Assembly (NCBI RefSeq): GCF_022846255.1
Contig: NZ_AP025682.1
Source of the DNA: Escherichia coli
Lineage (GTDB): Bacteria > Pseudomonadota > Gammaproteobacteria > Enterobacterales > Enterobacteriaceae
Strand: one strand, 5' to 3'
Length of the DNA stretch: 64,000 nt
Below are positions 57,214-57,690 of the stretch, piece after piece (the first letter of the stretch is position 1; every line of letters begins with the position of its first letter). Below the pieces are notes generated by a model. It saw only the letters and a list, made by a program, of their open reading frames with translations. It was not told where the DNA came from and did not search any database. The position numbers and the translations under genes were made by a program.

Positions 57214-57304
57214 GATGCGATGCTGGCCTGATAAAACGCGCCAGCGTCGCATCAGGCATCGTGTGCAAATGTCGGATGCGGCGTGAACGCCTTATCCGAC
57301 GTAC
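57214..57304. repeat. REP/BIME cluster between yacG and mutT
   Basis: GATGCGATGCTGGCCTGATAAAACGCGCCAGCGTCGCATCAGGC (57214-57257) and GTCGGATGCGGCGTGAACGCCTTATCCGACGTAC (57271-57304). Confidence 0.8.
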
Positions 57305-57690
57305 ACGCGCTTAAGCTTCGCAATTACCGGTTCATTGGCTGGCGGAAAATCATCGGCATTCAGACCGACCAGCGCCATCCACTCACCGGGTTGCCCTTCT
57401 TTACCCCACGGCTCCCCTTCCCAGCTTTCGACCAGCCAAAACCACAGTGTTATATGCCTGTCCGGGAATTCATATTCCAGTTTTTCAAATAGCGAAAAAT
57501 GTTGTGGGGTAATCCCGACTTCTTCCTGAAGTTCACGCACCACCGCCTGTTCCGGCGTTTCGCCCATTTCAACTTTACCGCCGGGAAACTCCAGTTTATT
57601 CGCCATGTGCGCATCTGCTGCGCGACGCGTTATAAAGATTTCATTGTTCTCGTTGCGAATAATACCTACCGCAATTTGCAGCTTTTTCAT
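57292..57690 (-). CDS. mutT: 8-oxo-dGTP diphosphatase MutT (Nudix hydrolase)
   Basis: ORF 57292..57690 (132 aa) MKKLQIAVGIIRNENNEIFITRRAADAHMANKLEFPGGK; Nudix box GETPEQAVVRELQEEVGI; last codons and stop lie inside a REP copy. Confidence 0.9.
   Translation of the reverse strand: MKKLQIAVGIIRNENNEIFITRRAADAHMANKLEFPGGKVEMGETPEQAVVRELQEEVGITPQHFSLFEKLEYEFPDRHITLWFWLVESWEGEPWGKEGQPGEWMALVGLNADDFPPANEPVIAKLKRVYVG

Follow-up and report, generated by a model that had tools for sequence, protein, structure and literature searches.

How a gene can come to take its last codons and its stop from a repeated element is the question raised by the 3′ end of the antimutator gene mutT in the stretch of Escherichia coli DNA analysed here (64,000 nucleotides, hereafter the window). 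The original prediction held that a copy of the REP family supplies the end of this gene, and that the REP, or the BIME to which it belongs, had altered or extended the C-terminus of the protein. The sequence and the list of open reading frames both give a minus-strand mutT of 132 codons followed by a TAA stop at 57292–57294, with a protein ending in AKLKRVYVG as predicted.

The mutT gene and the repeat at its 3′ end

Locally, the plus strand carries coaE-zapD-yacG and the minus strand mutT-secA, in that order, with the 3′ ends of yacG and mutT facing the same BIME (Table 1). Over 55000–61000 the window shares 99.6% identity with strains FHI_NMBU_03 and O84:H7 Trh52. The end of mutT reads GTG (57306–57304), TAC (57303–57301), GTC (57300–57298), GGA (57297–57295) and TAA (57294–57292), and the TAC fills the slot that a TAG stop occupies in alleles of 129 amino acids.

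Table 1. Positions of the mutT-yacG features in the window, with the evidence for each
Feature	Positions	Strand	Evidence
yacG, convergent neighbour, 3′ end toward the same BIME as mutT	57006..57203	+	Open reading frame list; RefSeq annotation, homologous loci
yacG-mutT spacer between the convergent stop codons, 88 nt	57204..57291	.	Spacer length; inverted repeat; terminator scan
Complete Y+Z2 unit (BIME-2 unit)	57225..57301	-	Rfam RF02564 naRNA4, full-length
Z2-type REP palindromic unit, GCCTGATGCGACGCTGGCGCGTTTTATCAGGC on the mRNA strand	57226..57257	-	Inverted repeat; Rfam naRNA4 alignment; fold
Y-Z2 linker, 13 nt, ATTTGCACACGAT on the mRNA strand	57258..57270	-	Folds; Rfam alignment
Y-type REP palindromic unit, mRNA-strand reading GTAC-GTCGGATAAGGCGTTCACGCCGCATCCGAC	57271..57304	-	Inverted repeat, copy count, REP alignment, predicted hairpin
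mutT terminal codons GTG TAC GTC GGA TAA (V129 Y130 V131 G132 stop)	57292..57306	-	Sequence, strain comparison, REP alignment
mutT CDS	57292..57690	-	Open reading frame list; NCBIfam NF008044; PDB chains; WP_137501328.1

The encoded protein, identical to NCBI WP_137501328.1, scored above the equivalog cut-offs for MutT (8-oxo-dGTP diphosphatase) with both NCBIfam NF008044 (244.7 bits, cut-off 148) and TIGR00586 (228.7 bits, cut-off 97.9). Its residues 1–129 aligned to positions 1–129 of the 130 in the NF008044 profile, leaving residues 130–132 unaligned. The PDB chains of MutT are 129 residues long and likewise align to residues 1–129 of the window protein; together with the K-12 sequence they confirm that K-12 MutT has 129 amino acids and ends in KLKRL, as stated in the original prediction. 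Compared with K-12 MutT (PDB 1MUT, 3A6T and others), the window protein carries I40V, R89S, S106A and L129V within these residues, followed by three additional residues, YVG, with no counterpart in the solved structures or in the family profile. Since this tail lies beyond both the solved chains and the equivalog profile and varies between strains, it is most likely neutral for catalysis.

The string GTCGGATGCGGCGTGAACGCCTTATCCGACGTAC was located exactly at 57271–57304, where it forms a Y-type REP palindromic unit whose 14-nt arms are an inverted repeat with 86% complementarity. The unit fits the Y consensus GCCGGATGCGGCGTGAACGCCTTATCCGGCCTAC (as quoted in PMC12306157), an imperfect palindrome of about 35 nt. 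With three or fewer mismatches, the 30-nt Y core occurs three times in the window (at 30384, 39822 and 57271) against none in 100 shuffles, and the two other copies have two mismatches each in that core. A 301-nt query matched a median of 7 places per E. coli genome, as is proper to a dispersed repeat. On two aspects the unit departs from the REP norm. The conserved GTAG head, present in K-12, O104 and other REP copies, reads GTAC in the window, and GTAT in the O157 and B2 types. The unit is also partly coding, unlike REP and BIME-2 elements in general: 13–14 nt of it (57292–57305) lie within the mutT coding sequence, as in the 132-aa form generally, while the overlap is 1–5 nt in the 129-aa form and is confined to the TGTAG head in K-12. 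The mutT Y unit is a mutated REP copy rather than a different element.

The boundary of the repeat was placed at TGTA by alignment with unrelated REP copies, namely those at 39.8 kb and 30.4 kb in the window and the second unit of K-12. These read TTTTGTAGG(T/C)CGGATAAGGCG, with TGTAGG(T/C)CGGATAAGGCG as the common string. Because the repeat begins at TGTA, the final two bases of codon 129, codons 130–132 and the stop are REP sequence, and the predicted origin of the last codons is thereby upheld. Likewise, since the unrelated copies carry GTAG, this motif is the repeat's own consensus at the position of codon 130. The TAA that ends the window mutT is that of the conserved GGATAAGG of the REP stem. 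At the two other REP loci of the window there is no contact with a stop codon, the nearest being 38 nt away at the 30.3-kb locus and more than 100 nt away at the other.

The Y unit, its linker and the Z2 unit together matched the Rfam model RF02564 (naRNA4) over its full length on the minus strand, at 57225–57301, with 77.9 bits for a gathering score of 59.5 (model positions 1–77 of 77). In effect the model represents a single Y-linker-Z2 unit from REP325 (Qian et al. 2015, PMC4550694), with which the mutT element shares the full-length covariance-model match and the two-hairpin architecture. REP325 differs in lying at yjdM-yjdN with six units, whereas the element considered here lies at mutT-yacG and has one unit; a 2026 preprint (bioRxiv 10.64898/2026.03.23.713779) moreover contests that naRNA4 has a nucleoid role. 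The likeness to REP and BIME-2 elements extends to the Y and Z2 sequences, their inverted arrangement, the short linker, the location between convergent genes and the use as a target by REP-specific insertion sequences. As in BIME-2, the number of tandem units is variable, from 1 to 5 at a spacing of about 116 nt across Escherichia.

Nearly all of the spacer between the two stop codons is REP material, including an additional partial palindrome in which 57212–57227 pairs with 57240–57255. The mRNA-sense strand is predicted to fold into the two expected hairpins (minimum free energy −56 kcal/mol, z-score −3.8), and a terminator scan detected no intrinsic terminator-like site between mutT and yacG.

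Several other Rfam families were matched in the window. STnc40 (RF02057, 83 bits) covers the 3′ end of secA and the secA-mutT intergenic region at 57705–57774 (minus strand), and was present across all Escherichia loci scanned. The other gathering-level matches were PssrA (RF02797, 105 bits) at 63421–63510 (minus strand) and tp2 (RF02030, 104 bits) at 45838–45951 (plus strand). A borderline match to ES036/CssrF (RF02751, 38.2 bits) at 39775–39817 (minus strand) adjoins the solitary REP at 39.8 kb.

Stop codon alleles and their ancestry

In K-12, mutT ends AAA CGT CTG TAG GTC AGA TAA GGCG, and in the window AAG CGC GTG TAC GTC GGA TAA GGCG. The two ends are collinear and free of insertions or deletions. 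All E. coli examined, K-12 included, have the same REP next to mutT at an identical position, and so do five other Escherichia species. The TAG stop of K-12 is the GTAG head of this REP, so that the passage from CTG-TAG to GTG-TAC amounts to a stop-loss substitution together with L129V. The TAA of the REP stem lies exactly 9 nt beyond the TAG position, and for this reason is always in the mutT frame. Read from the codons, these alignments demonstrate that mutT would rely on the stop triplets of the REP for its termination, and that one substitution in the first would move termination to the second.

All the 132-aa alleles seen combine CTG→GTG (L129V) with a change of TAG to TAT or TAC. Their tails differ: YVG in the window, A25, O157:H7 and Jnd12, YVE in TUM13881 and AZ159, and YAG in FHI_NMBU_03. 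They end in TAA or, where GGATAAGG has lost one A, in TAG. The tail thus drifts along with the REP arm, which fits a weak constraint at the protein level. Among alleles of the shorter class, E. coli E2386 has a 7-nt tandem duplication at the junction of stop and REP (ctgTAG tctgtag gtcggataagg), which shifts the REP by 7 nt from the stop and leaves its MutT at 129 amino acids.

Allele frequencies were assessed by megablast with diagnostic 42-mers in 5,426 complete E. coli genomes, any match necessarily carrying both diagnostic bases. The 129-aa class accounted for at least 3,162 genomes (at least 58%), as the K-12 type (1,790) and the O104/B1 type (1,372, at mutT). The 132-aa class reached at least 1,818 (at least 34%), divided between the O157/Jnd12 type (662), the VYVE type (637), the VYAG type (356) and the TAC type of the window (163, of which 50 exact); about 446 genomes (8%) were left unclassified. 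Of 39 entries drawn at even intervals from the first search, about 17 belonged to the 132-aa class. In RefSeq, strains of the 132 type are annotated with a 399-nt mutT coding sequence, and the O157-type and VYVE-type proteins are each found on at least 1,000 contigs. The 132-aa form is therefore widespread and already annotated, an ordinary MutT allele next to an ordinary BIME-2 unit. The original prediction had taken the reference protein to end differently; this holds for K-12, but O157:H7 and about a third of the complete E. coli genomes share the longer C-terminus. The two classes also explain why MutT is listed in databases with either 129 or 132 amino acids, both being genuine alleles and not errors.

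Outside E. coli, all five Escherichia representatives returned by the genome scan (E. albertii, MOD1-EC7003, E1V33, E. whittamii and SCPM-O-B-8794) encode a MutT of 129 amino acids; codon 130 is TAG or TAA and is followed by the same REP. In each, one to five units match the naRNA4 model, the array beginning with the final base of the stop. Since the outgroups have a stop at codon 130 and GTAG is the head of unrelated REPs, the 129-aa form would be ancestral and the 132-aa form a derivative by stop loss. In a neighbour-joining tree of mutT codons 1–128 (384 nt) the 129-aa and 132-aa alleles are not separated, and some of the latter (Jnd12 and the group of the window and A25) hold basal positions within E. 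coli, a mixture that could reflect recombination or the limited resolution of 384 nt. As the tree leaves the classes mixed, it proves neither a single origin nor which way the change went inside E. coli, and it was set aside as evidence for a single origin of the 132-aa form.

Going further, the C-terminus of MutT was compared across 79 species of Enterobacteriaceae and found to be highly variable after PPANEPVIxKL, with total lengths of 129 to 135 amino acids. The stop is TAG in 22 of the 79 species, 15 of these within GTAG. A genus-specific REP-like palindrome often lies directly 3′ of the stop, as GCCGGATAAGG in Citrobacter and, in Enterobacter and Leclercia, as GCCTGCTAAGCGAAGCGCCAGCAGGC. 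A parallel to the window is seen in Citrobacter amalonaticus S646, whose mutT stop is a TAA within GCCGGATAAGGC. The use of REP heads as the source of the mutT stop is thus recurrent, and different REP families are involved in Escherichia, Citrobacter, Enterobacter and Leclercia.

Two database entries met with in these searches call for caution. The 424-nt contig QXHL01000193.1, labelled as an Alicyclobacillaceae bacterium, encodes a Salmonella-like MutT ending in RKLRQFAP at 0.83x coverage and is almost certainly an enterobacterial contamination of that assembly. NZ_AP023206.1 (404 kb, 'plasmid pMTY18781-1_lncX3') carries the chromosomal secA-mutT-yacG-zapD genes and is likely a mis-assigned or hybrid replicon.

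The number of BIME units varies from 1 to 5 independently of the tail. The window has one unit in an 88-nt spacer and K-12 two in 215 nt, within the ranges of one-unit loci (87–106 nt) and two-unit loci (201–215 nt) generally. Alleles of 129 amino acids are found with one or two units (spacers of 99 or 215 nt), and so are those of 132 (87–90 nt with one unit, 201 nt with two). At the upper end, the mutT-yacG BIME of E. albertii and Escherichia sp. E1V33 (1890–2430 of the loci analysed) consists of five Y+Z2 units at a spacing of about 116 nt, and is comparable with the six-unit REP325.

The same BIME is also a target for insertion sequences. The IS3-like IS1397 is found in the central loop of the yacG-mutT Z2 REP (ACGCTGG^C...) in MS1266, VTB97074v, MS1170 and strain 1105, which are close relatives of the window strain; in MS1266 (NZ_CP135959.1) it occupies 2277–3620, corresponding to about position 57241 of the window. 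In these carriers mutT is intact, with 132 amino acids. The mutT BIME hosts a second REP-targeting element in E. coli 18AR0366 (NZ_CM132283.1, from about position 730), the IS110-like IS621, which follows the Z2 unit directly (after ...CTTATCAGGCC).

The hairpin at the stop codon

The predicted fold places the stop in close contact with the Y hairpin in both classes: the hairpin starts at the base after the stop in 129-aa alleles (0 nt), and encloses the stop in its 5′ arm in 132-aa alleles. In the window, TGCAC of the linker is predicted to pair with GUGUA of codons 129–130, and both substitutions that define the longer allele make pairs between codons 128–130 and the Y-Z2 linker. Where the REP is intact, the predicted local hairpin is −26.3 kcal/mol in the window and −27.0 in O157, against −20.5 in O104 (129 aa) and −17.0 in K-12. 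REP stems are decayed in the remaining 132-aa haplotypes, with −18.5 for B2 VYVE, −20.3 for VYAG and −18.3 for Jnd12.

Given the footprint of the ribosome on mRNA, a terminating ribosome would have to melt the Y hairpin in both classes. The downstream Z2 hairpin would then stay free as a 3′ barrier or attenuator. By analogy with other REPs, the BIME might serve as a bidirectional 3′-end element for mutT and yacG, either as an attenuator or as a barrier against decay, and it may affect translation or mRNA stability. As the hairpin lies directly at the stop (0 nt), mutT translation may be damped by it.

According to the account given in PMC12306157, translation is down-regulated by REPs that lie less than 16 nt away from a stop codon (Liang, Rudd and Deutscher 2015). 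The same geometry is present at mutT in an extreme form; the likeness to these translation-regulating REPs is one of distance to the stop, and stalling, mRNA cleavage or tmRNA tagging at mutT would be an analogy. A recent preprint describes REPs as combined terminators and stabilisers, and associates those between convergent genes with higher expression of both (bioRxiv 10.64898/2026.03.23.713779). A literature search for mutT, REP and stop codon together returned nothing specific, and neither mutT nor yacG is mentioned in the RepRanger supplements.

Origin of the 132-residue form

The locus is very probably explained by a BIME-2 resident at the 3′ end of mutT, in which a stop loss in the GTAG head of the REP led to a protein of 132 amino acids ending at the REP TAA. 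A BIME-2-type cluster of Y+Z2 units would have stood against mutT since before the Escherichia species diverged. The 5′ end of its first Y unit, TGTAG-GTCGGATAAGG, holds two in-frame stops for mutT, the TAG of the head and, 9 nt further on, the TAA of the stem. The first of these ends mutT at 129 amino acids in the ancestral form, which is kept in K-12, O104:H4 and the other Escherichia species. In the class of the window, TAG would have become a tyrosine codon (TAC or TAT) and the preceding codon would have changed from CTG to GTG (L129V). With TAG turned into a tyrosine codon, ribosomes would read the three REP codons Tyr-Val-Gly and terminate at the TAA, the second in-frame stop of the REP. 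What is directly observed here is the anatomy of the locus, its positional homology, its polarity against the outgroups and the REP consensus, and the allele frequencies.

A different history was implied by the original prediction, in which the insertion of a REP or BIME in the window strain, or a change in BIME copy number, replaced or extended the C-terminus. The prediction was right that the tail and the stop are REP-encoded and that the unit number differs between the window and K-12. However, the REP is a long-standing resident whose junction with mutT is identical in both classes and in five other Escherichia species, two point substitutions alone separating the alleles without any insertion; one and two units occur in both classes, so copy number is not linked to the tail and was rejected as its cause. 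This history is very improbable. An error of sequencing or assembly at the window stop codon has nothing in its favour and a negligible probability, and was discarded: the exact 42-mer is present in 50 complete genomes, the allele class in at least 1,818, and the protein in NCBI as WP_137501328.1. The polarity could also be reversed, with the 132-aa form ancestral in E. coli and the K-12/B1 form produced by a nonsense mutation from TAY to TAG, in agreement with the basal position of several 132-aa alleles in the mutT-body tree. That tree is poorly resolved over its 384 nt and E. coli recombines; moreover, all five outgroup species have a stop at codon 130, GTAG is the consensus head of unrelated REPs, and the reversion needs both GTG→CTG and TAY→TAG, which together make this order of events quite unlikely.

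Two further readings, one on selection and one on mutational mechanism, are weak. The substitutions may have been selected for a stronger hairpin enclosing the stop, which would tune REP-dependent stalling or 3′-end protection, the level of MutT and the mutation rate. The stronger predicted hairpins of the window and O157 compared with O104 and K-12, the linker pairs added by both substitutions and the down-regulation reported in PMC12306157 for REPs near stops are consistent with it, but the decayed stems of the other 132-aa haplotypes argue against sustained selection on structure, and a stalling effect may not differ between forms in which the hairpin begins at the stop or encloses it. We consider such an adaptive origin unlikely. 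As for mechanism, the stop loss may have arisen by quasi-palindrome template switching, the 5′ flank of the REP being corrected toward the complement of its 3′ flank, a route compatible with stop loss in a resident BIME-2. When the 5′ flank is aligned without gaps to the reverse-complemented 3′ flank (CTTGTGCAAAT), each change matches the templated base: C→G in codon 129 and, in the stop, G→T, which yields the TAT haplotypes. Yet two out of two would be expected by chance in about 1 case in 9, the intervening mismatched positions are unconverted, and the TAC of the window is not the templated base and needs a further T→C, leaving template switching doubtful.

Stop loss within a resident BIME-2 makes mutT a worked example of how a "repetitive extragenic" element can supply the stop codon of a gene. 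As the repeat carries a second in-frame stop, a single base change adds a fixed number of three residues. On a broader and rather improbable view, REP heads would act as portable translation terminators, combining a GTAG stop with an in-frame TAA 9 nt on as a fail-safe, and the polymorphism would set MutT levels. If so, the 129/132 polymorphism would alter the enclosure of the stop in the hairpin and lead to lineage-specific levels of MutT and to lineage-specific basal rates of A:T to C:G mutation. Should the geometry of hairpin and stop affect MutT abundance, it would be relevant to natural variation in mutation rate.
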